A DNA stretch of 64,000 bases from a virus (IMGVR_UViG_3300037515_000251:7926-71925), one strand, 5' to 3'. Shown: positions 6,451 to 63,803, counted from the first letter of the stretch. A program made the numbers and translations. Notes: generated by a model from the sequence alone, not told the origin.

Positions 6451-9400
6451 ATGCCGAACTCGCTGGAATTTATCCGAAGGGCCAAGCCGGAGCAACTACC
6501 GGTCGGCGCCGGGAATTCGCTCGATTTTATTCGCCAGGCGAAGCCGGGCAATTCCCTGGATTTTATTAAGTCGGCCAAAGCATCCGATCCCGTGTCAGTT
6601 TGGCACGGACAGCCCACGCCCGCAACCGCCGTCTCGACCACGCCCTCGCGCCGGGAACTCGGAGCCGAGCCGGAGGGTTTCTCAATCGGCCGCTTTGCCC
6701 GTGGTTTCTTTCGCCCGCCGGGGGATACACAGGAAGCCGAAAACGAGCGCATCAAACGCGCCGTCGTGGGCACGCCGGAGAAGCCGACATGGTTCACGCC
6801 GGAGACCCCGGAGCGCCCCACGACCCCGGCTGGCTACATGCGCCAAGCCTACCAGGAAGGAGGCGCCCTGGGTGCGGCTGGCGAAGTCGCCAAGATGGGC
6901 GTGCTCGGCCCGCTCTACGGCGCATTCAAGCAGCGCGACACGCCGCCGGTCCAGGCGGGCGAGCTATTCGAGCCGGGCACCGAGGCCCGCGGAATCGCTG
7001 AAGCCGTCTCGCATTTCGCCACGCCGACGAATGCCGCGATCATTGCCGGGGCCTCGACACTGACTGGCATACCCGCGATAGCCCTGAGCGCGTACTTCGC
7101 TACCGACATGGGCGTTGGAGCCTACCAGACTGCCGGGGAGATCGCCAAGGCCAAATCCGAGGGCCGGGAAGACGATGCGCGGGAACTCACCGGGCAGTTG
7201 ATGGTGATGATTCCGGCGGCGCTTGGCGCGGCGGGACATGCGGGCAAGAAAACCGTGGGGATCATCGGCGACCGGAGTGGACGAATCAGAAGCGGAGAGC
7301 CGACGACGCAGCCGCCGGAAATCACGTCGGTTGATGCGCCAGCGGTGCCGCCTTCGCCCATCGCCGCGCGTGCCGAGCCGTTGGCTGGAGAGATGACTGC
7401 TTCCCTCCAGGGTGGCCAGCGCACGCTGCCATTTGTAAGTGAAGCGGACCTTCGCCCTCCGCCGCCGCCAGCACCACCAGGAGTACCGCCGCAAGGTCCA
7501 GGCGGTCCCGCGGTTCCGCCCACGCCGCCGGGAGCGGGCCGTCTACCAGAATCCGAATCCTGGGTTCAGAAGCGCATTGATCTTGAAGACCGGCTCTATC
7601 CCGTCAAGGCGATGGAGAAGATGGCCCGTGACCCGCTGAGCATCGAGGAATCCGCCTACCACCGAATGCGGATGTACCCGGCCGTGTTCGCGCGCGCGCA
7701 AAGCCATCTCGAAACGCTCCGCAAGGGACTCAAGCCGATCCGCCAGACGTTCCGCGAGGATATCAAATCGTTCATCACCGACAAGAAGCCAGCCGATCTG
7801 GTGAGCGAGTTCGAACGCTACGCCACGAACGCCCATGAACTCGACGTGCAGCAGGTCTATCCCGAACGCCAGTTCTCGGGCGGACGCACCCGCGAGCAAA
7901 TCATCCAGGAACAACGCGATATTCAGCAGCGCCTTGGCCCGGACAAGATGGCTCGCCTCAATCAGGCGCAGCGGGCATACTCGGAGTTCGGCCACAGAAT
8001 GCTCGACGAGCTTGTGGACGCTGGCGCATTCAGCCGCGACGTGGCCGCCAGGCTCAAGCAGGCGTATCCGCGCTATGTTCCACTGGAGCGCGTGCTGGCG
8101 GAAGCGGAGGGCGTATTGAAGCACCCCGGAACCGGCGGCGGGAGATCCATGTCGGTTTCGACTCAGAACGTCGTCCGCAAACTCACCGAGCAGGGCAGCG
8201 AACTCGAAATCCAGCGAGCACTTGAAACCATGAGCCGTAAGGCGTTCGACGCATTCTCGCTAGCCGAGCGCAACCGGGCCTCACGGGCCGTCTACGATCT
8301 TGCCGGGAAGGAAGAGTTCGCCGGAACGGTAATCCGCCTGCGGCCGGAAGCCGATCCACCGCCGGGCATGGTGCGTTCGTCGGTGCTGATCGACGGCGTG
8401 CGGCACGATTACGCTGTACCACGGCAAGTCGGCGAAGCGATCCAGGGATTGACCAAAACCCAAGCGGACGTGGTGACGGAAATGGCAGGCAAGAGCGCCC
8501 AAGCCCTCCGCGCCGGTGCAACGACCTGGAGCCTGCCGTTCCTGGGTACGAACATCGCCCGCGATTACTACACGGCCTCGATGCGCTCGCCGGTCGGGTT
8601 CACGCCGCTCGACATGATCGCCGGGTTCTACCACGGCCTCAAGAAAGACGCCCTGTACCACGACTACCTGCGCTCGGGCGCCGCCATGTCGGGGTTCTTT
8701 GAGCAATTCAAGACGCCGCAGCGCGAAGCCCGCCATCTGGTCGAAAGCCAAGCGACCAGGAACATGAAGAAAATCCTGAACCCGTTCGAACTTATGTCCG
8801 AGATCGGCCAGGCTGGCGAGAATGCGGCCCGCATCGGTCTCTACCGGCGCGGCAAGCAGGCTGGACTATCCGAGATGGAAGCCGGTTGGCTCGGGCGCGA
8901 TACGACCGTGGACTTCGCCAAGTCCGGGCGGGTGATTCGCGTCCTGAACATCCTGACGCCGTTCATCAACGCCCGCATTCAGGGCAGCGGCAACATGCTG
9001 CGTACCTTCCGCGATAATCCAGGCGAGGCGAGTTTGACTTGGTGGGCATTGATCGGCGGGCCGTTGACGGCGCTCTACCTCTACAACACGCGCAATCACC
9101 CGGAAGCGTACCGGGACATGCAGCCGTACACCGAGGAAGCCTATTACCCGCTCATTACCGGAGACGAAAAAGACGAAGATGGCAGCTATCCTGGCTTCAA
9201 GTTCCCGATGGAAGAGTTCGGGCAACTCGGGGCGCGCAGTCTGCTGGCGGCCTTGCAGCATCTCGATGAGAACGACCCGGTGGCGCTCAATAAGCTGGCG
9301 AGCCGCATGGGCCTCAGCGGGCGCGAGCTTCAGCCGGGGGAAGGCAAGAAAGCGCCGAGCGCGGCCAAAGTTGCTTTCGAGACGGCGACTGGCCTGCTCC

Positions 9401-10194: not shown

Positions 10195-10198
10195 AATC

Positions 10199-10217
10199 GG
10201 TGCCAAACTGACACCGA
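10199..10217. repeat. genome-wide palindrome copy (cgGTGCCAAACTGACACcg)
   Basis: between convergent gene ends 10194/10218. Confidence 0.9.
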
Positions 10218-12636: not shown

Positions 12637-12651
12637 GTGTCAGTTTGACAC
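12637..12651. repeat. genome-wide palindrome copy (GTGTCAGTTTGACAC)
   Basis: 8 nt upstream of HNH ATG (minus strand). Confidence 0.9.
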
Positions 12652-13844
12652 TAGGTTTCGACGGCCGGCGCGTATTCCTGTTCGGTCATCCCCCAACTCG
12701 CGGCCAATGCCGCGCGCGCCGTGCGGTGTTGTGGATTCGCCCATAGAACGGTCGTCTTTCCGGTAGTGTGGCAAGTGACCGATAACAGGCCCCATCCCAC
12801 GTTGCCGCCAAGATCAAGGGTGTAGAGTTCCGCGAGATGCGCGGCATTCTGGTCGATCAACTTTAGGCGCTTCGAAGACAACAGCTTTCCCTTGCCGTAA
12901 CGCTCGATCATCACCCGCCGCACTTCCGCGTTCGGTTCGGCGAAGATGGCATCCTCGGTGATTGTTTCCGGCCTCTCGATCACGTCTTGCGGCACGCGAA
13001 CTCCGTGCCACGCCCAGATATTCCAGCCGTCGTTGAATTTCATTGCTGGCCCGGTCTCGCAATGCAGGCGGTTGATGCTGCGGTCATCAACCTCCGTATG
13101 GACTTCCGGCCGGGCGGACACAAAACACATATTCTCGAAGAAATAAACCCAGCCGCAAGAACGGCAGAGATCGGCCATGATGCAGAGCCTTGTGGACATC
13201 TCGGGTTCATAGCGGACGCCCAAGTGTTCGCAAAATTTGTAAAAGCACACCCAAAAGGAATCGTGCTGGCCCAAAAAATACGTGTCCCGAAGGCTGGCCC
13301 CAAGGCTGTCCCGAAGGCTGTCCCCAAGGTTGTCCCGAAGGTTGTCCCCAAGGCTGTCCAGAAGGCTGGCCCCAAGGCTGTCCCAAAGGCTGTCCCGAAG
13401 GCTGGCCCCAAGGCTGGCCCCAAGGCTGTCCCGAAGGCTGTCCCCAAGGCTGTCCAGAAGGCTGGCCCCAAGGCTGTCCAGAAGGCTGTCCCCAAGGCTG
13501 GCCCGAAGGCTGTCCCCAAGGCTGTCCCCAAGGCTGGCCCCAAGGCTGTCCCCAAGGCTGGCCCGAAGGCTGGCCCCAAGGCTGTCCCAAAGGCTGTCCC
13601 GAAGGCTGGCCCCTCGGATCGCCGCAATGCCAATCTGGCACGTCAGCGGAGAATCGCACCATACGATTACCGGTGGACCCTTTCCGATGGCGCGATAGGC
13701 CCGATTGATCGCGTCCCTGGCGAGAATTTGATCGCACGGGCCAGCCGCCATCCCAATTCGCAGCCACTCGTCGCGCCATTTGGGAATACTTGCTTCCTGC
13801 TCTGGCGTGAGGGCTTCAATCCGCAACGCTTTTAATGACGGCAT
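12651..13844 (-). CDS. tetrapeptide-repeat protein ((S-L-[GRWL]-[DA])n, ~30 copies) with unique N- and C-terminal domains
   Basis: 397-aa ORF; central ~356 nt is a 12-nt tandem DNA repeat (ggctgtccccaa-type) encoding SLGD/SLRA/SLWD units; overlapping plus-strand and other-frame ORFs are frame artefacts of the repeat. Confidence 0.55.
   Translation of the reverse strand: MPSLKALRIEALTPEQEASIPKWRDEWLRIGMAAGPCDQILARDAINRAYRAIGKGPPVIVWCDSPLTCQIGIAAIRGASLRDSLWDSLGASLRASLGDSLGASLGDSLGDSLRASLGDSLLDSLGASLLDSLGDSLRDSLGASLGASLRDSLWDSLGASLLDSLGDNLRDNLGDSLRDSLGASLRDTYFLGQHDSFWVCFYKFCEHLGVRYEPEMSTRLCIMADLCRSCGWVYFFENMCFVSARPEVHTEVDDRSINRLHCETGPAMKFNDGWNIWAWHGVRVPQDVIERPETITEDAIFAEPNAEVRRVMIERYGKGKLLSSKRLKLIDQNAAHLAELYTLDLGGNVGWGLLSVTCHTTGKTTVLWANPQHRTARAALAASWGMTEQEYAPAVET
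13265..13620. repeat. 12-nt tandem repeat array (~30 units) inside CDS 12651-13844
   Basis: ggctg(g/t)cccc(a/g)aa units repeated head-to-tail; period 12 = 4 codons. Confidence 0.8.
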
Positions 13845-14235: not shown

Positions 14236-14250
14236 GTGTCAAACTGACAC
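14236..14250. repeat. genome-wide palindrome copy (GTGTCAAACTGACAC)
   Basis: ~27 nt upstream of minus-strand start at 14208. Confidence 0.9.
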
Positions 14251-14253: not shown

Positions 14254-14502
14254 CTAACGGCGGTCCCCTGAAATGATCCTGGATACAAGACTCTGGCTGA
14301 CCCCATACGCTTCGGCGATGTCCGACTGGTTGTAGGATTCCGCCAGAATGCAGATTGCCTTTCGTTGGACGGCTGACAACATGCGTGGAGGCCCTGCCTG
14401 ATTGCGGCGTTGCCCCGAACGGTAACGTCCCCACAGCGCCCTCAACTCCTCATCACTGAGGGTTGTAGAGCAGTGGGGGCAGCGAGTGACCAGCAGCGGC
14501 AT
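14254..14502 (-). CDS. small Zn-ribbon/HTH DNA-binding protein
   Basis: CPHCS N-terminus, C-terminal HTH-like ICILAESYNQSDIAEAYGVSQSLVSRII (sigma-r4/LuxR-like). Confidence 0.4.
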   Translation of the reverse strand: MPLLVTRCPHCSTTLSDEELRALWGRYRSGQRRNQAGPPRMLSAVQRKAICILAESYNQSDIAEAYGVSQSLVSRIISGDRR

Positions 14503-16400: not shown

Positions 16401-16472
16401 CGGCGTCGGCTGGATTTGAACCAGCTACCTAAAGTTTTCAAAACTTTCGCTCTACCAATGAGCTACGTGTAT
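16401..16472 (-). ncRNA. tRNA-like RNA (D-arm, anticodon-like arm with loop UUUGAAA, T-arm GCUGGUUCAAAUCCAGC) lacking a pairing acceptor stem; candidate Y RNA (YrlA-like tRNA mimic) or partial tRNA
   Basis: minus-strand sequence …ACACG-UA-GCUC-AUUGGUA-GAGC-G-AAAGU-UUUGAAA-ACUUU-AGGUA-GCUGG-UUCAAAU-CCAGC-CGACGCC-G; 5' heptamer AUACACG cannot pair with 3' CGACGCC; 3' tail forms CGCC-GCAA-GGCG GNRA hairpin; T-arm identical to tRNA at 46386. Confidence 0.5.
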
Positions 16473-16556: not shown

Positions 16557-16571
16557 GTGCCAAACTGACAC
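16557..16571. repeat. genome-wide palindrome copy (GTGCCAAACTGACAC)
   Basis: between gene end 16575 and tRNA-like RNA. Confidence 0.9.
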
Positions 16572-16574: not shown

Positions 16575-17288
16575 CTAATTCCCGATTAAGTGCTGCCGCC
16601 GCGCCTCATCGACTTCGTTGAGGATCGCGCCTTTCATGCAGTCCACCTTGTTGTCGTGGCCGTCGCCGGAGAGTAGCGCGAGTTCGTCCGATTCCAGCAG
16701 GTCGGCGAACGCCTCCGCCGCGTCGGCACTCAGTTTCTTGGCGAACTCCGCGATCCTCTGGACGTGCGGGGCGGCTCCATTCTCGAGAACCCACACCCGC
16801 ACGCAAACCGGGATGTTCGCCCCGGCCGCTACGGCTAGTTGGTGGGTCGGCATGGTCTTCGCCTTCTCGATCAGGTCGGGCTTGATGTGGCCGTTGATCT
16901 GCTCGTGCCGGGCGAGAAAATTCCCATTCGAGACGCTGATCTCGCCGCGATCTTCGGGCGAGAGTTGCTGAAGCGCCTTGCTCGACGCCAGGAACATCGC
17001 CCGCCCGGCGGTGCCCTCGCTGATCCCGAAGTGAGCCAGCCCGGACTTGCGGAACTCGGTCCAGGTCTTGCAGCCGAGTCCCTCGTAGAGTCCGCGGTCC
17101 TGAATCAGCAGCAGCAGGTTGCCGAGCGCGACCCGCATGTTGATCTCGGCGGCCTGAAGGAACTTGTCGGCCTGGCCGAACGCAGTCAGGTAGTCGCGCG
17201 TGGCGGCGGCGTCGAGTTCGGGGATGTTCGCCGCATCCTGCCAGTGGCGGATGACATCGAGCGGTTGGGATTCGGTGAGTTCGGTCAT
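16575..17288 (-). CDS. hypothetical protein
   Basis: ORF 16575-17363, likely start MTELTESQ at ~17288. Confidence 0.4.
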   Translation of the reverse strand: MTELTESQPLDVIRHWQDAANIPELDAAATRDYLTAFGQADKFLQAAEINMRVALGNLLLLIQDRGLYEGLGCKTWTEFRKSGLAHFGISEGTAGRAMFLASSKALQQLSPEDRGEISVSNGNFLARHEQINGHIKPDLIEKAKTMPTHQLAVAAGANIPVCVRVWVLENGAAPHVQRIAEFAKKLSADAAEAFADLLESDELALLSGDGHDNKVDCMKGAILNEVDEARRQHLIGN

Positions 17289-19026: not shown

Positions 19027-19508
19027 TGGACAAGAGCCATGTACTCACGCACCCTGCCAGTCTCCACGTTGCGCTGGTGGAACTTCTTCGGCTCGCGCCC
19101 CAGTCCGTCGCAGAACTCGCAGTTCTCGGCCTCCCGGCGTAGCACGGCGAGCCGCGTCATGTCGCTTGCCGACCAAGCCTTTTCATCGGCAGCGGTGCGG
19201 ATGTCGAACTCGGTTGGGGTCCACTCCCCGGACGTGGCGAAGTGCTCGACGCAGGCTGCGATTGCCTCGGCATTGGTGCAGTAGCGTAGCACGGCATCGA
19301 TCAGCGTCTTGCGGATGGCGGGATCAGTGGGCCAGTTCTTGAGAGTAGCCCAACGGGTAATCCCATTGATCGCTTCCTGTTCGGCGGGACTGAGTTTGCG
19401 CTTCTCAGGCGCCGAGGCTTTGGATGTACTCGGCGATCCCGTCCGTCTTGCTTGGTTTGGCTTGGCGGCGCTGCTGTTCAGTAGTGAAGAAACACTCGAT
19501 AATGGCAT
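18972..19508 (-). CDS. hypothetical protein
   Basis: 178-aa ORF with CxxC…CxC cluster. Confidence 0.3.
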   Translation of the reverse strand: MPLSSVSSLLNSSAAKPNQARRTGSPSTSKASAPEKRKLSPAEQEAINGITRWATLKNWPTDPAIRKTLIDAVLRYCTNAEAIAACVEHFATSGEWTPTEFDIRTAADEKAWSASDMTRLAVLRREAENCEFCDGLGREPKKFHQRNVETGRVREYMALVHCRCPYGQLRAKVEGQGA

Positions 19509-20510
19509 CGGCTGAAACTCCTTTCATGTGATCGGCGGCATGTTTTTCGAACGTCCCAATCAACCTCGTCTCGAAACCTGGCTTGTCTTGCAGGTACATC
19601 GCTTCGAGCAGCGCGATCTTCCAGGCTGGCAGGTGAAGATCAACCCACTGCACAACACCGTTTCCGGGCGGCAATGCGCGTAAACGGCAGGCATTCACCA
19701 CCGAGATGATGACCCCGGCTTGCGGGCGCGGATCCAGCTTCGTGTCAGTTTGGCACCGATTGGGCCGGGAGAACGCCTCGGATGGCTGGCGCGATCTGGT
19801 AACCCCGCCATTCGGCCGACGCGGACGCCCTGGGACCCCGACCAGGGCCAGCACGTCGTCGGTCACATTCCCGCCGTCCCCGGAGCGCTCGTCGAGTAGC
19901 GCCGCGATCCGCTCCCGCAACTCCGGCGAATCAGCCTCGGTGAGCAGCCGCCGCTTCGACCCCGTGGTGATCCGTAGCGACAGCCCCAGGCTCCGCGCTT
20001 CGTCCGCCGCCCACTTGTCGATGGGGCGCTCCATTTCCGCGGAGTTCTGTTTTGGTAAGGGGGTAGGGGGATTATCTCTTTCTTTAGTATTTTCTTTAAG
20101 AGAAGAATCTATAAGGACGGGATCGGGGTTGACCGTCGCATGGGTGCGACTGTCACCGTCGCATGGGTGCGACTGTCGAGCGGAATCGACCGTCGCATGG
20201 GTGCGACTGTCGAACAGGATCGAGTAGCTGACTGGGAAGCCTCCGCCGTTCGGACTTTTGGCGATCAAGCCGCGCTCAATGAGTGAGTTTACTGCTCGGT
20301 GAAAGGTGGCGACGTTGATCTGCGACCACCCACAAATCGTGTCCCTGTCAACCGTGACGACTTGACGCTGGAACCCGATCGTGAGCCGGTAGATCGACAG
20401 GTAGACCTTCATCTCCGAGGACGATAAATCGCCCATGATCTGCTCGATGAAGTCGTGATTGAGTTGGCTGAAGTTGCCTGAAGGCGGCCGGTTCGGCCTG
20501 GATTTCATGG
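19405..20510 (-). CDS. replication-initiator-like protein (winged-helix N-terminus) with origin-like iterons inside its coding sequence
   Basis: probable start MKSRPNRPP at ~20510 (GAGG upstream); N-terminal MKVYLSIYRLTIGFQ…INVATFHRAVNSLIERGLI helix-turn-helix-like; ORF reads through palindromic motif at 19742 without a stop, so 3' boundary uncertain. Confidence 0.4.
19742..19756. repeat. genome-wide palindrome copy (GTGTCAGTTTGGCAC)
   Basis: inside/at 3' end of initiator-like ORF. Confidence 0.9.
20132..20211. repeat. three 23-bp direct repeats (accgtcgcatgggtgcgactgtc; iteron-like) next to an AT-rich patch (20075-20115): candidate origin of replication
   Basis: copies at 20132-20154, 20155-20177, 20189-20211; flanking ttatctctttctttagtattttctttaagagaagaatctataagg is strongly AT-rich for this genome. 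Confidence 0.6.
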
Positions 20511-24000: not shown

Positions 24001-24015
24001 GTGTCAAACTGACAC
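24001..24015. repeat. genome-wide palindrome copy
   Basis: 19 nt upstream of minus-strand ATG at 23982. Confidence 0.9.
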
Positions 24016-46774: not shown

Positions 46775-46789
46775 GTGTCAAACTGACAC
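46775..46789. repeat. genome-wide palindrome copy
   Basis: between tRNAs and structural block. Confidence 0.9.
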
Positions 46790-46999
46790 CGGATGTGCTA
46801 GGCTGGACTCAAGAATCGGCATTCACATGCTGGTTTCCTCCCAACGAATCAGAGTACATCGCCAAATGGCCCGGCCCACCAGCCGGGCCTATTTTTTGGT
46901 AGGATTGGAATGCACGTAAAGTCTCCTCGATAAAAACGGGACTCTGGGCCGTGGTTGTAGACGAGATCGCGATCGGCCGCGGCCCAGAACCAACAGACC

Positions 47000-47926: not shown

Positions 47927-50668
47927 TTGAAACGACTGCTTGCCGCTGTTCTCCTGATCGCCGGTAGCCTGTTCGGGCAGAACCCGAACGACGCCCAATA
48001 CCCCGACTCGGTGCTCACCGAGCTTCAGGCCACGATTCAGTCGAACGAGGTCGTCACCGGCCAGATGGCGCTTTCGGCCGGCCACAACTCGACCGCGCTG
48101 ACGATTTCGCTGGTGGACGCCACGAACCTGATCGTGCCGTCGTCTATCCAGGTTGGCAACGAGATCATCCTGATTCAGTCGAAGGCGGCGAACGATCTGA
48201 CCGTGTTTTCGTCGTCGCTGACGGCGAACGACTGCACCAACGCAACGCCGATCGTGGTCACTACGACCACGGCGCACGCGCTGACCGGGCGGGAGCGGGT
48301 GACGATTACCGGCGTTACCGGCAACACGAACTGCAACGTGACGGCCAACGCCATCGCTGTGCTTTCGACGACCACCTTCTCGCTGACCGGCGTGAACGGC
48401 AATGGAGCCTACCTCGCGGGCGGCGCCGTGACGGCCACGGGGCGCGGCTTCGACGGCTCAACCCCGGCCTCGCACGTCACCGGGGCGCTGGTCGAGCCGA
48501 ATATCGTGGCTCATCATGTCAACCAGCACACCGCAGAGATTCGGGCGATGCAGTCCGAACTCGGTGTCAGTTTGGCCAACGTGGCCGTGCTGAATCGGTC
48601 GAATGTGTTTACCGGGGTGCAGCAGACCTTTACATCGTCGGCCACGCGCGCGGCGGCGAGAATCCTGTGCGCGGCGCTGCCATCGGCCCCGGAAACCGGC
48701 GACGTGGCCTGCGATTCGGGGGATTCGAACATCTTCAAGGTGTGGAACGGGTCTGCATGGGTTTCCCTTGGCGGAGCATCGACCCACGATTTGCTCAGCG
48801 CTACCCACACCGATACAGCCGTGGGCACGGTGGTTCGCGGCGATCTGATTACCGGACAGACGGCCACACCGGCATGGACCAGGCTGGCGATCGGGGCGGC
48901 GAACCGTTATCTGTCTTCCGATGGAACGGATGTAGCTTGGGGACAGGTGGCTTTCTCGCAGCTTTCCGGGGCTGCAACCCTCTCGCAATTGCCGTTCGGG
49001 ACGGCGAACCAGGTTCTCGGCACCAACGCCGGGGCGACTGCTCAGGAGCACAAGACGCTCGGCGTGGGCACTACCGGGACCGACTTTGCCATCGCCCATG
49101 CCGCGAACTCGATTGTCTTCAACCTGCCGACCGCCAGCGCCTCGAATCGCGGGGCACTTTCCACGGCGGACTGGAGCACGTTCAACGCCAAGGCCGCTGG
49201 AACCCACGCCAGCCAGCACACGGCGGGCGGGGCCGATATCGTCACGGTCGATGGCACCGACGCCGGGGCTGGAACGACGCGGACGGCATGGAACCCGATC
49301 AAGATCTCGCGCCACGATACCGACTGCACATCCCTGACGGATGGAGCGGCTGGCGAGCCGTGCTACGAAGAGGACGCCGACACGCTTTATGTCTGCGAGC
49401 CTACGGCTGGCGGCTGTGACACGGCGGCGGAATGGCGGCTGGTAAGCGGGGCTGGATCGGCCATCGACGTTCAAAACAGCGACGTATCGATCTCGAACCC
49501 GGCCTCGGTGCTCGATTTCTCAGCCGAGTTCACCGTGACCGAATCGCCCGCCGGAGAGGCGAATATCGCGCTTGCTGGCGGCGGAATCGGAAACACCCGC
49601 AACTATACGACACTGTTCACTTCGACGACCAGCGTCACGGTCACCGGAACGGCCCATGGATTCAATCATGGGGCCATCATCGTCCAGTGCTACGACCAGG
49701 CGGTTCCGAAAGCGAAAGTAGAACCGAACACGGTTACCATCGCTCCGGCGACCTACAACGTCACGATCACGTTCTCGACGGCCCAGTCTGGCGAGTGCAT
49801 CCTGGCGGCCTCGGGGGGTGGCACGGCGGATTCAGCCTATGCCGGACTCTACATCTCGACCCCCGCCGCTACGGGACCGTTTGCCGCTGGAACTTACGTC
49901 AAACTCGCCGGAACGTACTCGAATCTGAGCGCCGGGCCGGATGACTTCGATGAACCCGTGGATGGGCGCCTGCGCTACATCGGGGCACGCACCCTGGTCT
50001 TCAACGCCTACGTGTCGGTCTCGTTGTCGATCGATGCGGCGGCCACAGTCAGCGTCCGCCTGGCCCGCAACGGAACCACGATCGCCGATTCCCAGCAAGA
50101 CGTGAACATGGCCACGGCCAGTGTGGCCTATCCGATTTCGCTGCATACCCAGGTGGGCTTGGCGACGAACGACTACCTCGAAGTATTTGTCGATCACGAC
50201 TCGGGTTCCGCCAAGACCGTAACCGCCGAACTGCTGACGATGACGGCGACCCCGGCCACCGGAGTCGCGAACAACGAAGGCAACCCCTGCTGGCAGAAAT
50301 ACACGATCGACGAGACGGCGCTGACCGACGCGGACACGAGCGAGGACGAGACGCTGTTCACCTGCTCGCAGTTCTGCAAGATTCGCGGCGCGGTCGTCAA
50401 GCACTCGGAGGCATTCACCGGCGGAACGCTTTCGGCTATGACGGTCAGCGTGGGAACCACTGGCACGCCAACGAGGTATACGAGCGCATTCGATATTTTC
50501 CAGGCGGCTGCCGACACGACCTTTCAGGACACCGACCTGATGAAATCGGAGACGATGGCGGCGGCGGGGCACAGCGTGATCGCTCAGTTCGTTTCGACCG
50601 GCGATAACGTGGTGAATGCGACGGCCGGGAGTGTCGATATCTGGGTTTGCTCGGAGACAATCCAGTGA
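47927..50668 (+). CDS. tail-fibre-like / receptor-binding protein (913 aa) with signal-peptide-like N-terminus
   Basis: MKRLLAAVLLIAGSLFGQ hydrophobic N-terminus; T/S/A/G-rich beta-rich composition typical of fibres; N-terminus paralogous to 51093 gene. Confidence 0.4.
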   Translation: MKRLLAAVLLIAGSLFGQNPNDAQYPDSVLTELQATIQSNEVVTGQMALSAGHNSTALTISLVDATNLIVPSSIQVGNEIILIQSKAANDLTVFSSSLTANDCTNATPIVVTTTTAHALTGRERVTITGVTGNTNCNVTANAIAVLSTTTFSLTGVNGNGAYLAGGAVTATGRGFDGSTPASHVTGALVEPNIVAHHVNQHTAEIRAMQSELGVSLANVAVLNRSNVFTGVQQTFTSSATRAAARILCAALPSAPETGDVACDSGDSNIFKVWNGSAWVSLGGASTHDLLSATHTDTAVGTVVRGDLITGQTATPAWTRLAIGAANRYLSSDGTDVAWGQVAFSQLSGAATLSQLPFGTANQVLGTNAGATAQEHKTLGVGTTGTDFAIAHAANSIVFNLPTASASNRGALSTADWSTFNAKAAGTHASQHTAGGADIVTVDGTDAGAGTTRTAWNPIKISRHDTDCTSLTDGAAGEPCYEEDADTLYVCEPTAGGCDTAAEWRLVSGAGSAIDVQNSDVSISNPASVLDFSAEFTVTESPAGEANIALAGGGIGNTRNYTTLFTSTTSVTVTGTAHGFNHGAIIVQCYDQAVPKAKVEPNTVTIAPATYNVTITFSTAQSGECILAASGGGTADSAYAGLYISTPAATGPFAAGTYVKLAGTYSNLSAGPDDFDEPVDGRLRYIGARTLVFNAYVSVSLSIDAAATVSVRLARNGTTIADSQQDVNMATASVAYPISLHTQVGLATNDYLEVFVDHDSGSAKTVTAELLTMTATPATGVANNEGNPCWQKYTIDETALTDADTSEDETLFTCSQFCKIRGAVVKHSEAFTGGTLSAMTVSVGTTGTPTRYTSAFDIFQAAADTTFQDTDLMKSETMAAAGHSVIAQFVSTGDNVVNATAGSVDIWVCSETIQ

Positions 50669-51092: not shown

Positions 51093-51908
51093 AGATACGC
51101 ACGGTTCATCGCTCTTTTGTTGTTCGGTGTCAGTTTGGCACCAGGTCAGGCGGTCATCAACGGAGCGCGGGTGATGCCGGAGATCAGCTCTCCGTCCAGC
51201 CCGGCGGCGAACAGCTTGGCGGTTTACGTCTGCGACGACGCGGGAACCACGAAACTCTGCTCGAAGGATTCGGCGGGGACCGTGTCGATTGGCATCGGCA
51301 CTGGCGGAAATGGCGTGGCGCAGGGAGGCACCGGCCAGACCAGTTATACCAAGGGCGACCTGCTGTGCGCCACGGGGGCGACGACGCTCGCTAAACTTGC
51401 CGTTGGCACGGACGACCAGGTGCTTACCGCCGACAGCGCCGAAGCCTGCGGGGTGAAATGGGCGGCGGCGGCGGGCGGTGGCGCACAAACAGCCCAGCGG
51501 GCGACCATGTGGGCCGATGAGTTCACTCCGGGGGCTAGCTGTGCATCCATTACTACAACAATAGACGCGGCGCAGAATTATGCCTTTTATTCAAACTGTG
51601 CCGACAATGCCGATGGAGACGATTTCACAACATCATTTTCATTGGCTGCTGGCACCTACACAGTTTATGTGCTCGGCGTGACTTTCAATAATCGGGCGAT
51701 ACTCGACTGGGAAGTGGACGACGTATCGGTAGAGACGGGACAGGATTGGTATTCTGCTGGAGTTGTAGCTGGTGCCGTCAAAACATTCCCGATCACCGTA
51801 ACTGACGGATATCACAAACTCGAAGGAATCGTGAACGGCAAGAACGCATCGTCCTCGGCATTCATTGTCACACTTACAAAGATTTGGATCAAACCAGCAG
51901 CGGATTAG
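51093..51908 (+). CDS. tail-fibre-like protein with signal-peptide-like N-terminus
   Basis: MRYARFIALLLFGVSLAPGQA; G/T/A-rich; C-terminal ~90 aa has a frameless paralogue immediately downstream. Confidence 0.4.
   Translation, partial: RYARFIALLLFGVSLAPGQAVINGARVMPEISSPSSPAANSLAVYVCDDAGTTKLCSKDSAGTVSIGIGTGGNGVAQGGTGQTSYTKGDLLCATGATTLAKLAVGTDDQVLTADSAEACGVKWAAAAGGGAQTAQRATMWADEFTPGASCASITTTIDAAQNYAFYSNCADNADGDDFTTSFSLAAGTYTVYVLGVTFNNRAILDWEVDDVSVETGQDWYSAGVVAGAVKTFPITVTDGYHKLEGIVNGKNASSSAFIVTLTKIWIKPAAD
51127..51141. repeat. genome-wide palindrome copy inside CDS
   Basis: within signal-peptide-like coding region of 51093 gene. Confidence 0.9.
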
Positions 51909-52275: not shown

Positions 52276-53103
52276 ATGCACTATGACACCGACCGCCTGC
52301 GTGAGCAGATCGCCGCCCGCCGCGAGGCGAAGCAGAGGTTGTTCGTGCGGCGCGTCGTTTTCGTGGGCTTGATGACCTTGTTTGCATTGGCGTTGCTCTA
52401 CTTCTGGCCGCCGCGAGCGCTTGGGGCCGACCTCACATTCTCGTTCCACCGCCAGCCCGACGAGGAAAAGCACACGCCCTGGTATCTCTGCGTCGAGAAC
52501 CTGTCTCCCGAACCGGCCCGCGTGCGGCTGGCGGACATCTACCGGGCGGCTGGCGGAAACGTGGCGCTCTACGACCCCGGCAAGCTGTCGAACGTTATGC
52601 GCCACAAGCCGCGGGCGAAGTGGCTCAGGGCGCTTGGGATCGCCGGGGCCGCGGCCTCGATTGTGATTCCGCTGGCCGGGGTGAAGGAAATCGGCGTCAA
52701 CCTGATTGGGCCGGCCCTGAGCGGCGGAACCGCCATCGCCGTCCCGGCCATTGAGGCAAACCAGCGCTTTGAAGTCGGGATTGAGGGCTACTGGACGACC
52801 GATCACCTGCTCGACGCCCGCGAGGCCCGCTGCTCTCGCGTAATGTCGGCACGGTCGAAGGATACTCTGGCGACGTTCACATTCGAGAGCCGGGATGTGC
52901 GGGCGGAAATGTTCCACGAAGCACAACACGAGCAGGATGAATTGATTCCATTCAGCAGCCTGAAGGTGGAGCACGGCGGGGCCTACACATTGCCCGGCGA
53001 TTGTGTTTCGTGCCAAACTGACACTGCCATGTTACAGCCGCCGTGCAGGCCGTCCGCCGTGGTTGAAGAGGATGGAGTCGAGCCGTGCGCTTGGGTAGAC
53101 TAG
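52276..53103 (+). CDS. hypothetical membrane-anchored protein
   Basis: 275 aa, TM helix near N-terminus, strong GC3 bias (antisense 350-aa ORF rejected); palindromic motif lies inside its 3' end. Confidence 0.4.
   Translation: MHYDTDRLREQIAARREAKQRLFVRRVVFVGLMTLFALALLYFWPPRALGADLTFSFHRQPDEEKHTPWYLCVENLSPEPARVRLADIYRAAGGNVALYDPGKLSNVMRHKPRAKWLRALGIAGAAASIVIPLAGVKEIGVNLIGPALSGGTAIAVPAIEANQRFEVGIEGYWTTDHLLDAREARCSRVMSARSKDTLATFTFESRDVRAEMFHEAQHEQDELIPFSSLKVEHGGAYTLPGDCVSCQTDTAMLQPPCRPSAVVEEDGVEPCAWVD
53010..53024. repeat. genome-wide palindrome copy inside CDS 3' end
   Basis: within 52276-53103. Confidence 0.9.
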
Positions 53104-53614: not shown

Positions 53615-54091
53615 ATGAACAAGCCGATCGACACCATTGAAGCCCGTGGTAGTTTAGGGGGGCAACCTTTTCACGGCAATGAATCTGGGCTTTGCTGGCT
53701 GATTGAAGACGCCACGGGAGAGTGCCGGATCGCCCACAAGCCGTGCCGGTTTCACCGTGGCGGTGGATATCACGGTGGGGTACTGCCTGAATTCTGCCCG
53801 CTCCGCGAGGGGCCGGTAACAATTTCTCTTCATTCCTGGCACTACGATGAGACTGTCCAGCGGGACAACCCAACCGTGGAGCAACGCATCGCGGCGATCC
53901 CAATCGAAGCGCAAATCGACGAGGCTACGGAGGCTGAGTTGCGTAAGGCCGGAAATCCGTTTTGGCGGCTGGACGACGAGTTGGAGAGGGAAGGCAAGTA
54001 CGCGCAATTCGCCGCCGAAACCAGACACAAGGTTGCCTGCGGCCTCCATGACCGCAACCTGGAGCAGTTGATCTCAAAGAGTGCCGTCTAA
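53615..54091 (+). CDS. hypothetical protein
   Basis: 158-aa ORF abutting terminase gene. Confidence 0.4.
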   Translation: MNKPIDTIEARGSLGGQPFHGNESGLCWLIEDATGECRIAHKPCRFHRGGGYHGGVLPEFCPLREGPVTISLHSWHYDETVQRDNPTVEQRIAAIPIEAQIDEATEAELRKAGNPFWRLDDELEREGKYAQFAAETRHKVACGLHDRNLEQLISKSAV

Positions 54092-56366
54092 GCCTAAATA
54101 CCGCGCCGAGAAGCTGTCCGCCGATGGGGTCCGTAAGCGGCAGGCGTGGACGCGCCCGCCAGAGGCGATCGTTCTCGACTCGCTCACCTACGACTCGCTC
54201 AAGCACGAACTCCACAACAAGCCAGTCTGGGAAGCGAACGCCTGCTACCTCTGCACAGGCCATCAGGTTCTTTCCCGCTACACGGCGCTGCTCCATTTCC
54301 AGTGGATGCACATCGACATCCTCAACGGCGGCCCGGCCACGCCCGAGGACGAAGCCGGTATCCGCAAGCTGGTAGGGGCGATCCGGCAGGAGTATGGGGT
54401 CGATGCGCCCTGGCCGAAGGGCGATCCGGTGATCTGTCCGGCCTGCGGAGGGACCGGGAAGGGGCCGCAGCATTTGGCGCTGACGACGTTGGCGGATGAA
54501 ATCTTCTTCGGCGGCGAAAAGGGCGGCGGCAAGACGTCCGCCATGACCTTTTGGATGGTCCACGGCAACCCGGATCAGCCGCAGTATGACGACCAGGGAC
54601 GGGCGATCTGGCACAACCAGGCGTATTATCATCACCCGGCGTACCGCGGCTTGGTGGTCCGCAAAAACCAGGAGGATTTGAGCGGCTGGCTGAAATACGC
54701 CATCCCGTTCTACCAGAAACTCGGGGCGGAATACCTGAAAGCCGAGGGCACATTTGAATGGGCTTCGGGCGCCGTGATCTGGACCGGACACCTGGCGGAC
54801 GCCAAATCGTATCAGAAGTACATGGGCAAGCCCGAGCTTCACCGGCTGGCTATCGAGGAAATCACGCAGTTGCCAGAGGAAGAGTTGTACGAGCAGATGC
54901 GCTCGAACGTGCGGACGACGCACCCGGAGTTGCACCCGCAGATTTTCAACTCGGCGAACCCGATCGGACCAGGTAAGCAGTGGGTCGCCGACCGTTTCGT
55001 GCGGATGAAAGACGAAAACGGCAATCGCATTCCGCGCAAGACGCTGGCGACATTCTTCGTGCCTAACCCGTTCACCGGCAAGAAAATGCCCCGCACGCGC
55101 ATCTTCATCCCGGCCGGCCTGCGCGACAACCCGCACATCGACAAGGGCTATCTGGGCGTGCTGGCCGGCCTGTCGCCGCGGCTGCAAAAAGCGTACCTCC
55201 AGGGCGATTGGGAGTCGATGGAAGGGCAATACTTCCACACGTTCCGCGATCCAGATGCACAGAACTTGGCTGCATACAACGAACCCGAGAATGCCTGCCA
55301 TGTGATTAAGCGCCGCAAGGAACCGCCGTTCTACCCGAAACTGGACCACTGGTGGGCGCGGCAAATGGGCGGCGACTGGGGTAGCGAGCATGAAGCATCG
55401 TACCACTGGGGCTGCCGCGATCCGTACACGTCCCGGCTGCACGTCTACCGGGAGTTTGTGTGCTCGAAGACGACAGCGGTATCGCAGGGCGTCCGCATTG
55501 CCGAGTTGAGCCGCGACGACCTGGAGCGGCTACCGGATCACTCGATGACGCTGTGGTACTCGCGAGATGCCTTCATTCAGCGTTCGAACGACGAAGGAAT
55601 GACCAGTCTGGTCGAATTGCTTGCTCGTGGAATCGCCATGGTGCTCGGCCCGGACGCGATCTCGGTTCCGGGATTACAGCAGCTTGCGGCCAGCACCCAA
55701 GATTATTCCTGGGACGACCGGCCCCGGTTCCGCCAGGAATTCAATGAGTTTCAGCAGTCGTTGGCAATCCAGAAGAGTTCGGGCATCACAATCCGCATGT
55801 GCAATTCCAACCGCGTACTCGGCTGGAACTACATTCGGGAAGGTTTCGAGTGGCTGGACCCCGTGGCGGCCGATGGCGAGTACAGCCAGGAGCTTGAGCT
55901 GAAGATCAGCCGCGAGTTCGGCATGGTCGAGGCCGAGCGCTACCGCAACCGCTTCAACCGCCAGAAGGTAGTTCGCCCGTGGCTTCAGATTTGGGATACC
56001 TGCCCGCGGCTGCGGGCGGCCATTCCGCGTGCGCAAGCTGACGACCGCAACCCCGAGGATGTGAGCAAGAAGCACTTCACGGGGGCCGACGTCATCGATA
56101 GTTTTCGCTACCTTGTAGTTGGCTTCCGCGACGACCCTTCGCCGATTCCGCCGGAAGTCCAGAAGATGCACGCGATCGATGCGTTCAAGGCGACTAATCC
56201 GAACCACACCTTCGATGACCTGGTGCGGTTCAACGAAGCATTGGAGCGGGCCGAAAAAGCGACTGGCGGGCCGTTGCATTATGCTACATTAGGACGCAGG
56301 GCGACCATGGCGGGCCGGATTCTGAAGCAGGCATGGGGCCGCCGGCCGCAAGGGAGTTTGCAGTGA
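54081..56366 (+). CDS. terL: terminase large subunit (ATPase + nuclease) with N-terminal Zn-ribbon extension
   Basis: Walker A-like GGEKGGGKTSAM, Walker B LAIEEITQL, RNaseH-like C-terminal half (…DVIDSFRY…); CPACGGTG upstream of ATPase. Confidence 0.65.
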   Translation: MPSKPKYRAEKLSADGVRKRQAWTRPPEAIVLDSLTYDSLKHELHNKPVWEANACYLCTGHQVLSRYTALLHFQWMHIDILNGGPATPEDEAGIRKLVGAIRQEYGVDAPWPKGDPVICPACGGTGKGPQHLALTTLADEIFFGGEKGGGKTSAMTFWMVHGNPDQPQYDDQGRAIWHNQAYYHHPAYRGLVVRKNQEDLSGWLKYAIPFYQKLGAEYLKAEGTFEWASGAVIWTGHLADAKSYQKYMGKPELHRLAIEEITQLPEEELYEQMRSNVRTTHPELHPQIFNSANPIGPGKQWVADRFVRMKDENGNRIPRKTLATFFVPNPFTGKKMPRTRIFIPAGLRDNPHIDKGYLGVLAGLSPRLQKAYLQGDWESMEGQYFHTFRDPDAQNLAAYNEPENACHVIKRRKEPPFYPKLDHWWARQMGGDWGSEHEASYHWGCRDPYTSRLHVYREFVCSKTTAVSQGVRIAELSRDDLERLPDHSMTLWYSRDAFIQRSNDEGMTSLVELLARGIAMVLGPDAISVPGLQQLAASTQDYSWDDRPRFRQEFNEFQQSLAIQKSSGITIRMCNSNRVLGWNYIREGFEWLDPVAADGEYSQELELKISREFGMVEAERYRNRFNRQKVVRPWLQIWDTCPRLRAAIPRAQADDRNPEDVSKKHFTGADVIDSFRYLVVGFRDDPSPIPPEVQKMHAIDAFKATNPNHTFDDLVRFNEALERAEKATGGPLHYATLGRRATMAGRILKQAWGRRPQGSLQ

Positions 56367-56670
56367 GCGAAGTCTGGAAGACGACGATTCCCGATCTGAT
56401 TCTTTGGCAGGTGGTCAAGCCAGGAGAGGTCGCCGAAGTATCGGTGTCGGTGCATCGCGACGCGCTGACAGGGAAGCGCTCGATCTCGGTACAAATCAAC
56501 GAACGTGATATGGCGTTCGATCTTGATGATGGCAAACCCCTTGGTTCTGGGATTGCCGTGTACTGGGGGCCATCGAAGGACTGGGCGCGTGAATTCGACA
56601 GAGTTAATCAGGGAGCTACTGGAATCGAACCGATTCGAAGCGGTACAAGATTGTCAGGGGGCCTCCGATA

Positions 56671-57072
56671 ATGTGGTTCCAGCGCGACGACACGGTTTAC
56701 CGGGAACGGGAAGAATTGCGGGCACGCAACGCCGAACTGCACGCCGCGAACGGGCAACTGCGCGAAACCATCGAAGGCTTGCGCCAGCAGGTTGCCGAGT
56801 TGCAAGGGCGGATTATTGAGGATAACCACCGCATCATCGATCACTTCGCCATGCGGGCCACGAACAGCCCGGTATTCGCCAACCCGCCGGAGCAGCCGGC
56901 GCCGGTCATGCAGGCCGACCCCAGGCCGCGGCTTGAAGATATCGCCGAGCGGGAAACGCGCAAGTTTTACCAGAACCACCGGATTGCCGGGCTTGGCCTT
57001 CCGCTGACCCCCCAGGTAGCGCCGGCCGATATGAACGCCAGAATGGCCGACCCCATAGCACAGGAGCAATAG
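56671..57072 (+). CDS. hypothetical coiled-coil protein
   Basis: 133-aa ORF. Confidence 0.35.
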   Translation: MWFQRDDTVYREREELRARNAELHAANGQLRETIEGLRQQVAELQGRIIEDNHRIIDHFAMRATNSPVFANPPEQPAPVMQADPRPRLEDIAERETRKFYQNHRIAGLGLPLTPQVAPADMNARMADPIAQEQ

Positions 57073-57076
57073 AAGA

Positions 57077-57490
57077 ATGCGTACCAGGCGTGAAATGTTC
57101 ACAATTCCAGCACTCTCGATCGCTGCGGGAACGATGGTGATCGCTCAAAATACGGTAAAATCACCAGAGACAGCCCATCTTTACGAGTCATTCGACGCAC
57201 AAGATTGGGCCAAGGCGTTCGTCTCGATCGCAAAGGCCAATCCGTCCGTGCCGTTCGATGAAGAAACTATGGTGACATGGTTCGCCAGCGCGCTGATGCG
57301 AGGCTACGATGAGCACGCTAGCGAGGTGGAAGCGCAGGCCAGGATCGCCGGAAAGAGCGTTCACGAACACCTATCTCAGATCGAGCTTCGCGGCCGCGTT
57401 GCTCAGGGATGGTGCTCGGAGAAGAATTCCCACAAGGTGATGGACGGCGACTTGGCTGAGGCAATCGTTGAGCGTTTGATGGATGCCTGA
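57077..57490 (+). CDS. hypothetical protein
   Basis: 137-aa ORF. Confidence 0.35.
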   Translation: MRTRREMFTIPALSIAAGTMVIAQNTVKSPETAHLYESFDAQDWAKAFVSIAKANPSVPFDEETMVTWFASALMRGYDEHASEVEAQARIAGKSVHEHLSQIELRGRVAQGWCSEKNSHKVMDGDLAEAIVERLMDA

Positions 57491-59946: not shown

Positions 59947-59961
59947 CGTGTCAAACTGACA
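59947..59961. repeat. genome-wide palindrome copy
   Basis: between portal-like and scaffold-like genes. Confidence 0.9.
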
Positions 59962-60080
59962 CCGACTTGCCTTTACATGTAAAAAAAGCGTACAGTATCA
60001 GTGAGCCGGATATCCCGTATTCCGTACCCCGTAGGGCCGACAGGCCCATGTAGGCTCCCGATGAGATACCGAGAGAACAC

Positions 60081-63074: not shown

Positions 63075-63803
63075 ATGGCCTATGGATCGTTCCAGTCCGA
63101 CAGCGCGGGCATGAAGCCGCGAACCGAGATGGTGAAGCCTCCCAACCCATTCGAGCAGCGCTTGCTCCAGCCGGAACCGGCCCCGGCACAGCATCCCGGC
63201 CTCAATCCGGCGTCGTTCCGCTCGAATCCATTCGCCAGGATGGGCGGCATGGGAGCGCGTGCCGCGATGGGCGGAGGGCAGCCGCAGCCACCGCCGCAGG
63301 CTCCGGCGTATGGGCTGCGGGAACGTTTATCAGGGGGGATGCGCGGGCTGCCGCCGATGATGGATCGCGGCGGCGGTGGTTACAACCCGAACGCGCCAAG
63401 CCCGGATATGCAGCGGCGAATGCGAATGCCGGAGGATTATCGACGCGGGGCGGACGAAGCGTTTTCCCGTGCCAGTTTGGCACCGCCGCCGACTGGAATG
63501 CCCGGCGGAATCATGGGCGAGCGTAGCGGCATGGACCGGCTGCGAGCCGCTGGCGGACAAATGCAGGGAATGCCCACCGACCCGATCCGGCAACGCCTGA
63601 TGGCACAACGCGGCGGTGGAATGCCGCCGCCACAGCCAGCGCCGCCAGCTTGGGCTGGCGGCGATCCGAGATTTCCGCCGCAAGGACGGCCTGGATCGGC
63701 CAATCCATTCTTCGATCGCCTGTACGCCCAGGATCAGCCGTCGCTTCAGCGGCCAGCGCCAATGCAACAAAACTGGAACCTGCCTCCGGAGATGTACCAG
63801 TAG
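63075..63803 (+). CDS. low-complexity P/G/M/Q-rich protein
   Basis: 242-aa ORF, repeats of MGG/PPP/QRP; contains a palindromic motif copy at 63469. Confidence 0.3.
   Translation: MAYGSFQSDSAGMKPRTEMVKPPNPFEQRLLQPEPAPAQHPGLNPASFRSNPFARMGGMGARAAMGGGQPQPPPQAPAYGLRERLSGGMRGLPPMMDRGGGGYNPNAPSPDMQRRMRMPEDYRRGADEAFSRASLAPPPTGMPGGIMGERSGMDRLRAAGGQMQGMPTDPIRQRLMAQRGGGMPPPQPAPPAWAGGDPRFPPQGRPGSANPFFDRLYAQDQPSLQRPAPMQQNWNLPPEMYQ
63469..63483. repeat. genome-wide palindrome copy
   Basis: inside 63075-63803 ORF. Confidence 0.85.

Follow-up and report, generated by a model that had tools for sequence, protein, structure and literature searches.

The 64-kb stretch IMGVR_UViG_3300037515_000251:7926-71925 (61% G+C; hereafter the window) is part of a tailed-phage genome in which a short near-palindromic repeat, GTGYCAAACTGACAC, is present in 23 copies spread over the closed 71,798-bp chromosome. 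Our analysis shows that this element acts at the level of DNA in a sequence-specific manner, and that it has been selected for evenly spaced, genome-wide coverage at gene ends. With moderate confidence we regard the copies as double-stranded DNA recognition sites for a phage-encoded protein that serve as roadblocks or insulators throughout the genome, our confidence in the roadblock function being lower than that in the DNA-protein reading. An initial annotation of the window had drawn attention to the repeat; its observation is partly confirmed and its interpretation partly supported by the data below.

Sequence and asymmetry of the repeat

Searching with GTGTCAAACTGACAC and allowing up to two mismatches gives 21 matches in the window compared with 0.06 in dinucleotide shuffles, and none of 100 shuffles reaches 21. 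Two further copies are located in the 7.8 kb beyond the window (contig L204 coordinates 13844 and 17199; genome coordinates 66918 and 70273), in agreement with the initial claim of at least 20 genome-wide copies beyond chance. The positions listed in the initial annotation all contain a copy, with corrections at four of them (10201 becomes 10200, 34723 becomes 34733, 59947 becomes 59948, and a degenerate copy given at 48565 spans 48564-48578). Twelve genome copies are perfect and have a T at position 4 (T-type), nine have exactly one change, which is always T to C at position 4 (C-type), and two are double variants (38123 and 63469); the corresponding numbers in the window are 12, 7, and 2. 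Conservation is all-or-none, since allowing three mismatches adds just one copy (48564) and isolated half-sites are not enriched outside the full sites.

Alignment of the 23 copies, oriented by their AAC centre, reveals a conserved unit of 19 bp, C-N-GTG(T/C)CAAACTGACAC-N-G, i.e. C-N-GTG(T/C)CA-AAC-TGACAC-N-G. Within the core 14 of the 15 positions are invariant or nearly so, the exception being position 4, and the AAC centre is kept in 22 of 23 copies. Outside the core there is a C at -2 in 18 copies and a G at +17 in 21. The bases at -1 and +16 are complementary in seven copies compared with 9.4 expected, and the lack of covariation indicates that the outer C and G are conserved as sequence and not as an extension of a stem; the repeat is thus not commonly extended into a 19-bp palindrome, as had been described. 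The motif is intrinsically asymmetric despite its near-palindromic form. All nine single variants, and also 38123, have their T-to-C change in the arm 5′ of AAC (P = 0.004); none of the nine has a change at the mirror position (GTGTCAAACTGGCAC), and copy 63469 has both changes (GTGCCA...TGGCAC).

Placement and spacing of the sites

Public gene calls placed on the closed genome give 100 genes with 7.8% of the sequence non-coding, and 18 of the 23 copies are intergenic (P = 3e-16), the other five being within genes; the copies are therefore chiefly in spacers and occasionally in coding sequence, as first noted. Eight of the ten spacers of 20-45 bp contain a site and little else. Both convergent junctions have a site (10195-10217 and 30798-30821), and the three divergent regions have none.

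The sites are associated with stop codons rather than with start codons. An upstream stop is at most 10 nt away for 13-14 of the 18 intergenic sites and is overlapped by the site in three cases; at 24001 and 44224 the internal TGA of the motif is itself the stop codon of the gene. Distances to the next start codon range from 7 to 302 nt, and about eight of the 18 sites are situated 7-27 nt before a start, so that the description of the copies as mostly 8-25 nt upstream of starts does not hold. One example given for it, the ATG at 25050, is doubtful: a tRNA-His gene (24963-25039) overlaps the longer form of the RlaP open reading frame (ORF), making 25050 probably not its start, and one public call begins this ORF at 24939. 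In spacers of at least 40 nt the site is biased towards the stop end (Fisher combined P = 0.001; nearer the stop in 8 of 12), and promoter-like sequence comes after the site in three long spacers (16557, 42118, and 59948).

Genes ending no more than 10 nt upstream of a site use TAG in 8 of 16 cases compared with 16 of 85 elsewhere (Fisher P = 0.02). This enrichment prompted a check for stop-codon recoding, which was rejected as there is no suppressor tRNA; the phage has tRNA-Pro, tRNA-His, and a tRNA-like gene whose anticodon is UGA. There is no preferred orientation relative to transcription. The 16 codirectional intergenic sites are divided into eight AAC-sense and eight GTT-sense, which bears out the earlier view that the central triplet is independent of gene direction.

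The 23 sites are spaced 950-8117 bp apart with a coefficient of variation of 0.53, compared with 0.94 for random placement and 0.99 for a null in which 18 of the 41 available spacers and five random positions are occupied. Both the coefficient of variation (P = 0.0008) and the minimum spacing of 950 bp (P = 1e-4 to 3e-4) reflect even spacing. When the intergenic copies alone are considered, the five widest gaps each contain one of the in-gene copies (6592, 19742, 38123, 53010, and 63469; P = 0.002). All five are C-type or variant, and all 12 T-type copies are intergenic (Fisher P = 0.014). As the in-gene copies occupy three reading frames and both orientations, they are evidently kept as DNA and not as peptide; a T-type copy at 6592 would create a stop codon in that frame, and in two other in-gene cases the T/C position falls at the third base of a Cys codon, where the change is synonymous. 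The recurring peptide CQTDT does not come solely from spurious ORFs, as had been supposed, but is encoded in frame in two real genes (19742 and 53010). The sites in the window are as follows.

6592-6606 (-): C-type, inside the 1247-aa LPD38 gene (V-S-V-W-H); fills the largest gap between intergenic sites
10200-10214 (+): C-type, in a 23-bp convergent junction, 5 nt past the stop at 10194 and 3 nt past that of the minus-strand gene (10218); with its extended arms the palindrome measures 25 bp
12637-12651 (-): T-type, fills a 21-bp spacer; overlaps the TAG of gene 12651-13844(-), with ATG 12629 7 nt on
14236-14250 (+): T-type, 3 nt past the TAG of helix-turn-helix (HTH) ORF 14254-14502(-); start 14208 is 27 nt on
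16557-16571 (+): C-type, heads a 320-nt spacer, 3 nt past the stop (TAG) of gene 16575-17288(-); a promoter-like sequence with TTGACA comes next, then a tRNA-like gene
19742-19756 (-): C-type, inside the O-like replication initiator gene, encoding CQTDT; gap-filling
24001-24015 (+): T-type, internal TGA is the stop of gene 24004-25050(-); start 23982 is 18 nt on
25062-25076 (+): T-type, 2 nt past the stop of RecT (25079); the minus-strand tRNA-His gene (24963-25039) follows 22 nt downstream
28554-28568 (+): T-type, 23 nt past the stop at 28592, in a 220-nt spacer
30803-30817 (-): C-type, occupies the other convergent junction (24 bp), with the stop codons on either side 5 and 4 nt away
31753-31767 (-): C-type, 7 nt past a TGA stop and 20 nt before ATG 31732; sense RNA has no hairpin
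34733-34747 (+): T-type, 3 nt past a TAA stop (34751); next start is 52 nt on
36368-36382 (-): T-type, 4 nt past a TAA stop (36387); ATG 36352 is 15 nt on
38123-38137 (+): variant matching at 13 of 15 positions, GTGCCAGACTGACAC, in codons 4-9 of the multi-HTH gene; gap-filling
42118-42132 (-): T-type, 4 nt past a TAG stop (42113), followed by a promoter-like TTGACA-18-AATACT and the XRE gene
44224-44238 (+): T-type, internal TGA is the stop of gene 43765-44235
46775-46789 (+): T-type, in a 621-nt tRNA-containing spacer; a canonical terminator (46868-46889) is 80 nt downstream
48564-48578 (-): degenerate, CCAAACTGACAC, with 12 contiguous matches, inside a 913-aa gene; outside the count of 23
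51127-51141 (-): C-type, in the middle of an 80-nt spacer
53010-53024 (+): C-type, inside gene 52276-53103, encoding CQTDT; gap-filling
59948-59962 (+): T-type, 10 nt past the stop of an 815-aa gene (putative portal by position); followed by a promoter-like TTGCCT...TACAGT ahead of the downstream late genes
63469-63483 (-): symmetric double variant (GTGCCA...TGGCAC), inside gene 63075-63803; gap-filling

The distribution of the sites also bears on whether the repeat is a selfish or recombination-propagated miniature palindrome, resembling a repetitive extragenic palindrome (REP), a miniature inverted-repeat transposable element, or a promoter early stem-loop (PeSL) boundary, which is copied within the phage and marks the joints of cassettes, no dedicated regulator being involved. 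The two discrete subtypes, the all-or-none conservation, the conserved asymmetry, and the short spacers consisting of little beyond the element would all be expected of copying. Sites 24001 (24001-24029) and 63469 (63455-63483) are moreover alike in 12 of 14 flanking bases (GGGAAAACG(T/C)TTC) where ~0.01 such pairs are expected, and the phage encodes RecT. Recombination between the dispersed repeats of the Cluster O mycobacteriophages has given rise to insertions and deletions (PMC4351075), and in a relative described below (contig L081) the palindrome of 27 bp is preceded, within the repeated unit, by a GTAG tag and the stop codon, which is reminiscent of the GTAG-tagged REPs in the available part of PMC3733652. 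However, HUH/RAYT, transposase, and integrase domains are all missing from the precomputed Pfam hits of the phage genes, the stem is weak and the element measures only 15-19 bp, and GTAG precedes just three sites. The in-gene copies are in frame, in three frames, and without indels, random insertion predicts neither the even spacing nor the filling of gaps, and strain variants of the phage show no presence/absence polymorphism. We regard such an origin as unlikely, but retain a small copy-and-spread component because the asymmetry, the two subtypes, the flanks of 24001 and 63469, the TAG enrichment, and two tandem GTGTCAGAAAAATCTGACAG units in the main control region are otherwise unexplained.

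RNA structure and promoter potential

An alternative is that the repeat functions as an RNA hairpin at gene 3′ ends, either as an attenuator or terminator, as an RNase processing or stability element, or as a modulator of termination-reinitiation, possibly with a phage RNA-binding protein. The abutment of sites and stop codons, the occupation of both convergent junctions, and the promoter-like sequences after the sites in long spacers are compatible with this, and some copies have longer predicted stems (6592, 10200, 14236, 24001, and 34733; 8-11 bp, -11 to -15 kcal/mol); the palindrome of L081 would fold strongly, at -17 kcal/mol. However, RNA of the 15-mer core folds at just -5.1 kcal/mol, and the C-type core in the AAC sense contains a C-A mismatch and does not fold (0.0 kcal/mol). 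In the structures predicted at intergenic sites 31753 and 70273, both C-type in AAC-sense orientation, and at 30803, the motif hairpin is absent or vestigial. Codirectional intergenic C-type sites are not biased to the strand that would form a G-U wobble rather than a mismatch (2:2), the flanks lack stem covariation, and the 'loop' is invariant.

The repeat is also rejected as an intrinsic terminator. None of the 23 copies is followed by a T-run or U-tract, the downstream flank being A-rich, and no terminator-like hit of the scan coincides with a site; the canonical terminator near site 46775 is a separate structure 80 nt after it. A hairpin 0-7 nt after the stop would be covered by the terminating ribosome, and terminators at such a short distance from a stop codon are nearly inactive, as far as the available part of PMC4824070 describes them. 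A hairpin leaves both the in-gene copies and the even spacing unexplained. The 8-bp stem initially put forward is thus disfavoured, and we consider an RNA function improbable.

Read on the GTT strand, the T-type sites also include TTGACA, a perfect -35 hexamer, raising the question of whether they are promoter elements. This hexamer is present in all 12, with CTGACA on the other strand, and the C-type sites have TTGGCA. However, a -10-like hexamer at 16-18 nt is found for one site only and points antisense into the 815-aa (putative portal) gene, the orientation relative to genes is 8:8, and several sites are 7-20 nt from the next start or convergent to it. The promoter reading, which had also been raised at the outset, accordingly fails for sigma-70 and is very improbable. 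A sigma-54 reading of TGGCAC in the C-type sites was rejected by inspection, as no TTGC comes after it.

The weak or non-folding RNA, together with the absence of a T-run, of a coinciding terminator, and of a -10 partner, favours a double-stranded site that is recognized by a protein. Base-specific conservation, the absence of strand bias, the three reading frames of the in-gene copies, and the even spacing of the sites all favour the initial proposal of a DNA-binding-protein site, although the asymmetry argues against a simple symmetric homodimer.

Occurrence in relatives and in other genomes

The motif is present in 74 contigs of IMG/VR, with a single copy in each. A scan of 185,579 bacterial species genomes lists at least 120 stretches, a small part of the chance matches expected for a 15-mer, and each genome stretch among the matches listed has one copy. 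Relatives defined by their large terminase (TerL; L078, L079, L082, L208, L209, and L217; 34-59% identity) lack the motif, and the 5-22 kb of sequence available for them has no other dispersed repeat either. A scan of related phages for the motif, suggested when the repeat was first noted, hence found it in none of the TerL-defined relatives. No close relatives were found in an IMG/VR protein scan, and a metagenome scan returned only phages with TerL identities of no more than 45%. Strain variants are 99.5-100% identical over the shared sequence, with one segment replaced in L205, and all of them agree in the presence or absence of sites.

A different dispersed palindrome, TGTCCGGAWTCCGGACA, often extended to 27 bp, is present in L081, whose TerL is 40% identical. 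At least five good copies are seen (1350, 3902, 9980, 13964, and 17357) together with degenerate ones at 12666 and 15407. They are located ~6 nt past stop codons, with the upstream TAG embedded in a conserved flank (GTAGTACAATG), and one is at the only convergent junction of L081. From these comparisons the trait looks like a site/binder pair that is exchangeable between related lineages. The L081 palindrome is found in 59 IMG/VR contigs compared with ~2 expected. In contigs L248-L306 (e.g. L260 3040-3200) it is usually within arrays of TTTCCGGACACGG direct repeats spaced at ~23 bp, resembling the iterons or operator arrays of a prophage group that is widespread; its inclusion in such iteron-like arrays indicates that the half-site is a bona fide protein-binding word elsewhere. 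The ORFs beside the arrays gave no Pfam result, and the arrays have no GenBank match.

These distributions are relevant to the possibility that the repeat is a host motif, either an acquired REP-type repeat of the host or a site at which the phage makes use of a regulator or nucleoid protein of its host. In favour of this, the bacterial stretches listed by the scan are a small part of the chance matches expected, and the L081 palindrome is widespread outside its phage. However, the motif is single-copy in every genome stretch among the matches listed and in the 74 viral contigs, and no other viral contig has two or more copies, as phages sharing the site of a host factor would have. A literature search found no paper giving the motif sequence as a site, the sole match being an unrelated primer. 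To our knowledge it matches none of the consensus sites for LexA, CRP/FNR, matS, parS, and the Pho box, nor the spacing of TnrA sites, which also counts against a host motif. We think a host origin quite improbable.

Candidate binding proteins

Four genes encode candidate regulators, all with HTH signatures as noted initially, and no evidence links any of them to the motif.

41476-41850 (+): MerR-type winged-HTH protein; MerR_1 E = 2e-13; predicted fold closest to CvkR
38113-38784 (+): multi-HTH protein, candidate binder; its N-terminus resembles sigma-70 region 4, its C-terminus is Myb-like, and it has a zinc ribbon (start at 38113, not 38114 as first given)
42206-42436 (+): small XRE/HTH_3 protein; candidate binder; site 42118 is just upstream of its promoter-like sequence
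14254-14502 (-): uncalled ORF of 82 aa, candidate binder; its C-terminal HTH scores below the Pfam cut-off

By analogy, we infer that the CvkR-like MerR protein gp41476-41850 is the leading candidate binder. Its best PDB sequence matches are GlnR and CvkR, it has a recognition-helix segment, RQLQYW, in common with CvkR, and it has no coiled coil. An AlphaFold model (predicted local distance difference test score, 86) matches CvkR over its full length (Foldseek E = 1e-4). A single homologue was found among 5.8 billion proteins, making a deep alignment impossible, and neither this nor the multi-HTH protein has homologues in GenBank phages. The CvkR dimer binds a 15-nt inverted repeat with a 7-1-7 arrangement (PMC9938897), and GlnR and TnrA recognize TGT-containing 17-bp palindromes with TGTNA half-sites, in which an Arg hydrogen-bonds the G and the following T is contacted only hydrophobically (PMC4335299). 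The only variable base of the motif, position 4, is the equivalent of this hydrophobically touched T. The location of site 38123 within the multi-HTH gene could make it autoregulatory for that gene.

Comparison with known repeats

The closest described analogue is the 17-bp dyad repeat of the Cluster O mycobacteriophages (Corndog and others), 5′-TGTTCGGNNNCCGAACA, which has 34 copies in ~70 kb with invariant arms, an A/T centre, no orientation rule, and a function not known; a dimeric binding protein was suggested by those authors (PMC4351075). Both repeats have inverted arms of 6-7 bp around a 3-bp centre with the arms invariant (here GTGYCA/TGACAC around AAC), and tens of copies over ~70 kb that are mostly in short gaps with a minority in genes (here 18 and 5). 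Neither shows a clear orientation relative to transcription, and there is no integrase in either phage. The Cluster O repeat is absent from the host and from other phages, and the present one occurs in other IMG/VR contigs only as single copies and is absent from the TerL-defined relatives. However, the sequences and the phages are unrelated, as presumably are the hosts. In the present phage the site has an invariant central triplet and a measurable asymmetry, and copies abut stops, are evenly spaced, and fill gaps within genes, whereas the Corndog sites are denser at one genome end and one third of them are in coding sequence.

The stoperators of Cluster A phages (bound by L5 gp71 and the TipsytheTRex repressor) are similarly phage-specific, with more than 20 copies of one short site in short intergenic spaces throughout the genome, and are proposed to halt elongating RNA polymerase when bound by the phage protein (PMC9283540). 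They are, however, fully asymmetric 13-bp sites that are bound by a monomer, work in only one orientation relative to transcription, and belong to temperate phages with an immunity repressor (PMC9283540). The repeat described here is a 15-19 bp near-palindrome with an orientation of 8:8 in a phage in which no lysogeny module was found. It is neither fully asymmetric nor held to one orientation, and the stoperator resemblance that had been pointed out does not extend to class membership.

The architecture of the repeat fits a MerR/CvkR-type operator in being an inverted repeat of ~15-17 bp, and a CvkR-like protein is predicted, from a low-depth model, at 41476-41850. CvkR, from a type V-K CRISPR-associated transposon, is an atypical MerR homodimer without a coiled coil, and gp41476-41850 is closest to it in sequence and predicted fold. 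The CvkR sites, AnnACATnATGTnnT, differ in sequence and overlap two promoters in one locus rather than being dispersed (PMC9938897).

The PeSL cassettes of T4-type phages also place a repeated stem-loop at cassette boundaries followed by a promoter, and promoter-like sequences come after sites 16557, 42118, and 59948 here; in the available part of PMC2839356 they are composite, oriented, and defined by structure plus promoter, not by an invariant 15-mer, and most sites here have no promoter after them. REPs likewise are extragenic palindromes just past genes in either orientation with conserved stem imperfections, but the available parts of PMC3733652 and PMC3333891 describe them as 20-40 bp, GC-rich, and chromosomal, with hundreds of copies, GTAG/CGTC tags, and RAYT proteins. 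The present element is 15-19 bp with a weak stem, is in a phage without a RAYT, and has GTAG within 5 nt at three sites only (10200, 30803, and 42118); by its length and tag it does not qualify as a REP.

Genome organization

The contigs close to a circle, as the gene at 692-2431 of the window directly continues the sequence past its right end. The genome is circular or circularly permuted, with the window and L204 10927-18724 making up the whole. A JGI contig of 71,799 bp carries the same phage, and at least six metagenome samples contain it, at 99.5-100% identity. There is no nucleotide match between the window and GenBank phages (megablast), and the large terminase (54081-56366; PHROG terminase hits) is no more than 27% identical to that of the best deposited phage (tblastn); by these comparisons the phage is novel among tailed phages. 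No integrase, partition, or transposase domains and no HUH/RAYT (Y1/HUH) domains are among the precomputed Pfam hits of its genes, no lysogeny module was found, and the phage is probably virulent.

A plus-strand late block extends from ~37.7 to 71.8 kb and runs on to 10.2 kb, and a minus-strand block (10.2-36.8 kb) encodes RecT, an SbcC-like ATPase, and an O-like replication initiator. Between them is the main divergent control region (36848-37703; 856 bp, AT-rich), with four T(G/T)AGACA(C/G) repeats at 37093-37147 and the following tandem element.

36999-37039 (+): two tandem 20-bp units, GTGTCAGAAAAATCTGACAG, having a GTGTCAG/CTGACA half-site in common with the dispersed motif but at a different spacing

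A lambda-like replication origin is apparent at 20090-20215 (minus strand) within the O-like initiator gene 19405-20508(-). It has three 23-bp iterons, GACAGTCGCACCCATGCGACGGT, each with a GTCGCA/TGCGAC inverted repeat, and an AT-rich stretch next to them. The only strong canonical intrinsic terminator, the one at 46868-46889, has an 8-bp all-GC stem followed by TATTTTTT. Three tRNA or tRNA-like genes are present.

46386-46466 (+): tRNA-Pro(TGG)
24963-25039 (-): tRNA-His(GTG), overlapping the longer version of the RlaP ORF
16407-16467 (-): tRNA-like gene, Rfam only; anticodon loop UUUGAAA (UGA anticodon)

Several genes have internal repeats or strain differences. The DUF6745-like gene 12651-13844(-) contains a 12-bp tandem repeat of ~27 units (GGGACAGCCTTG-like; 13286-13610) whose number varies by metagenome strain, the protein being 329 aa in one and 397 aa in another. 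The N-terminus of the 1247-aa LPD38 protein has three copies of the peptide NSL(E/D)FI(R/K)xAKP (6451-6591) directly before motif copy 6592. In strain variant L205 (JGI 3300037522), a shorter segment (3800-4416) that is partly 90% identical stands in for the small genes that window 56420-57490 has between the terminase and the 815-aa (putative portal) gene, and no motif copy borders the replacement.

A model for the dispersed sites

In the explanation that we favour, the 19-bp unit would be read by a sequence-specific, phage-encoded protein, presumably an HTH regulator. The sites themselves are kept at intervals of ~1-8 kb around the whole 71.8-kb chromosome. They occupy the least costly positions, the short stretches that separate a stop codon from the following ribosome-binding site or promoter, and where no such spacer is used the site is within a gene as the tolerated C variant. 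The bound protein would form an orientation-independent roadblock or insulator at gene and operon ends, at convergent junctions, and ahead of internal promoters, and may thereby curb read-through or keep the genome silent during one phase of infection. The same DNA-protein array could alternatively have a chromosome-organizing or loading role.

Several points weigh against this explanation. The roadblock function is purely inferred. Conservation is all-or-none, in two discrete subtypes and with neither graded weak sites nor half-site enrichment; an operator regulon would not usually look like this, and recent copying could also account for it. The alike flanks of 24001 and 63469, which are in different genes and reading frames, hint at copying too, and the confinement of the T-to-C change to the arm 5′ of AAC is contrary to what a symmetric homodimer predicts. 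None of the four HTH candidates is tied to the motif or shared with L081, and the model of gp41476-41850 was built on a two-sequence alignment, with one of five models confident. The evidence on host origin rests on at least 120 stretches listed from 185,579 species genomes, and relatives of intermediate distance, in which conservation of sites could be compared with that of their flanks, were not found in the IMG/VR and metagenome scans.

Beyond this explanation we suggest, tentatively, that the evenly spaced array may split the probably virulent chromosome into units of ~3 kb, either as a symmetric, orientation-independent counterpart of stoperators or as an organizing or loading array. Selection for coverage would be strict enough to write copies into coding sequence wherever the intergenic sites stand too far apart, and the specificity would be swapped between lineages (GTGYCAAACTGACAC here, TGTCCGGAWTCCGGACA in L081).

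The phage is uncultured and the immediate impact of these observations is limited. Dispersed dyad repeats of phages were described in 2015 for Cluster O but never explained, and the asymmetry, the absence of strand bias, the conservation of unpaired flanks, the even spacing, and the gap-filling in-gene copies seen here are new constraints on any explanation. The placement against stop codons, the presence of sites at every convergent junction, and the even coverage point to a DNA-level function that depends on coverage. The different palindrome in the same positions of the related phage L081 suggests a modular, exchangeable pair of site and binder, which would be relevant to how phages insulate or silence their transcription units.

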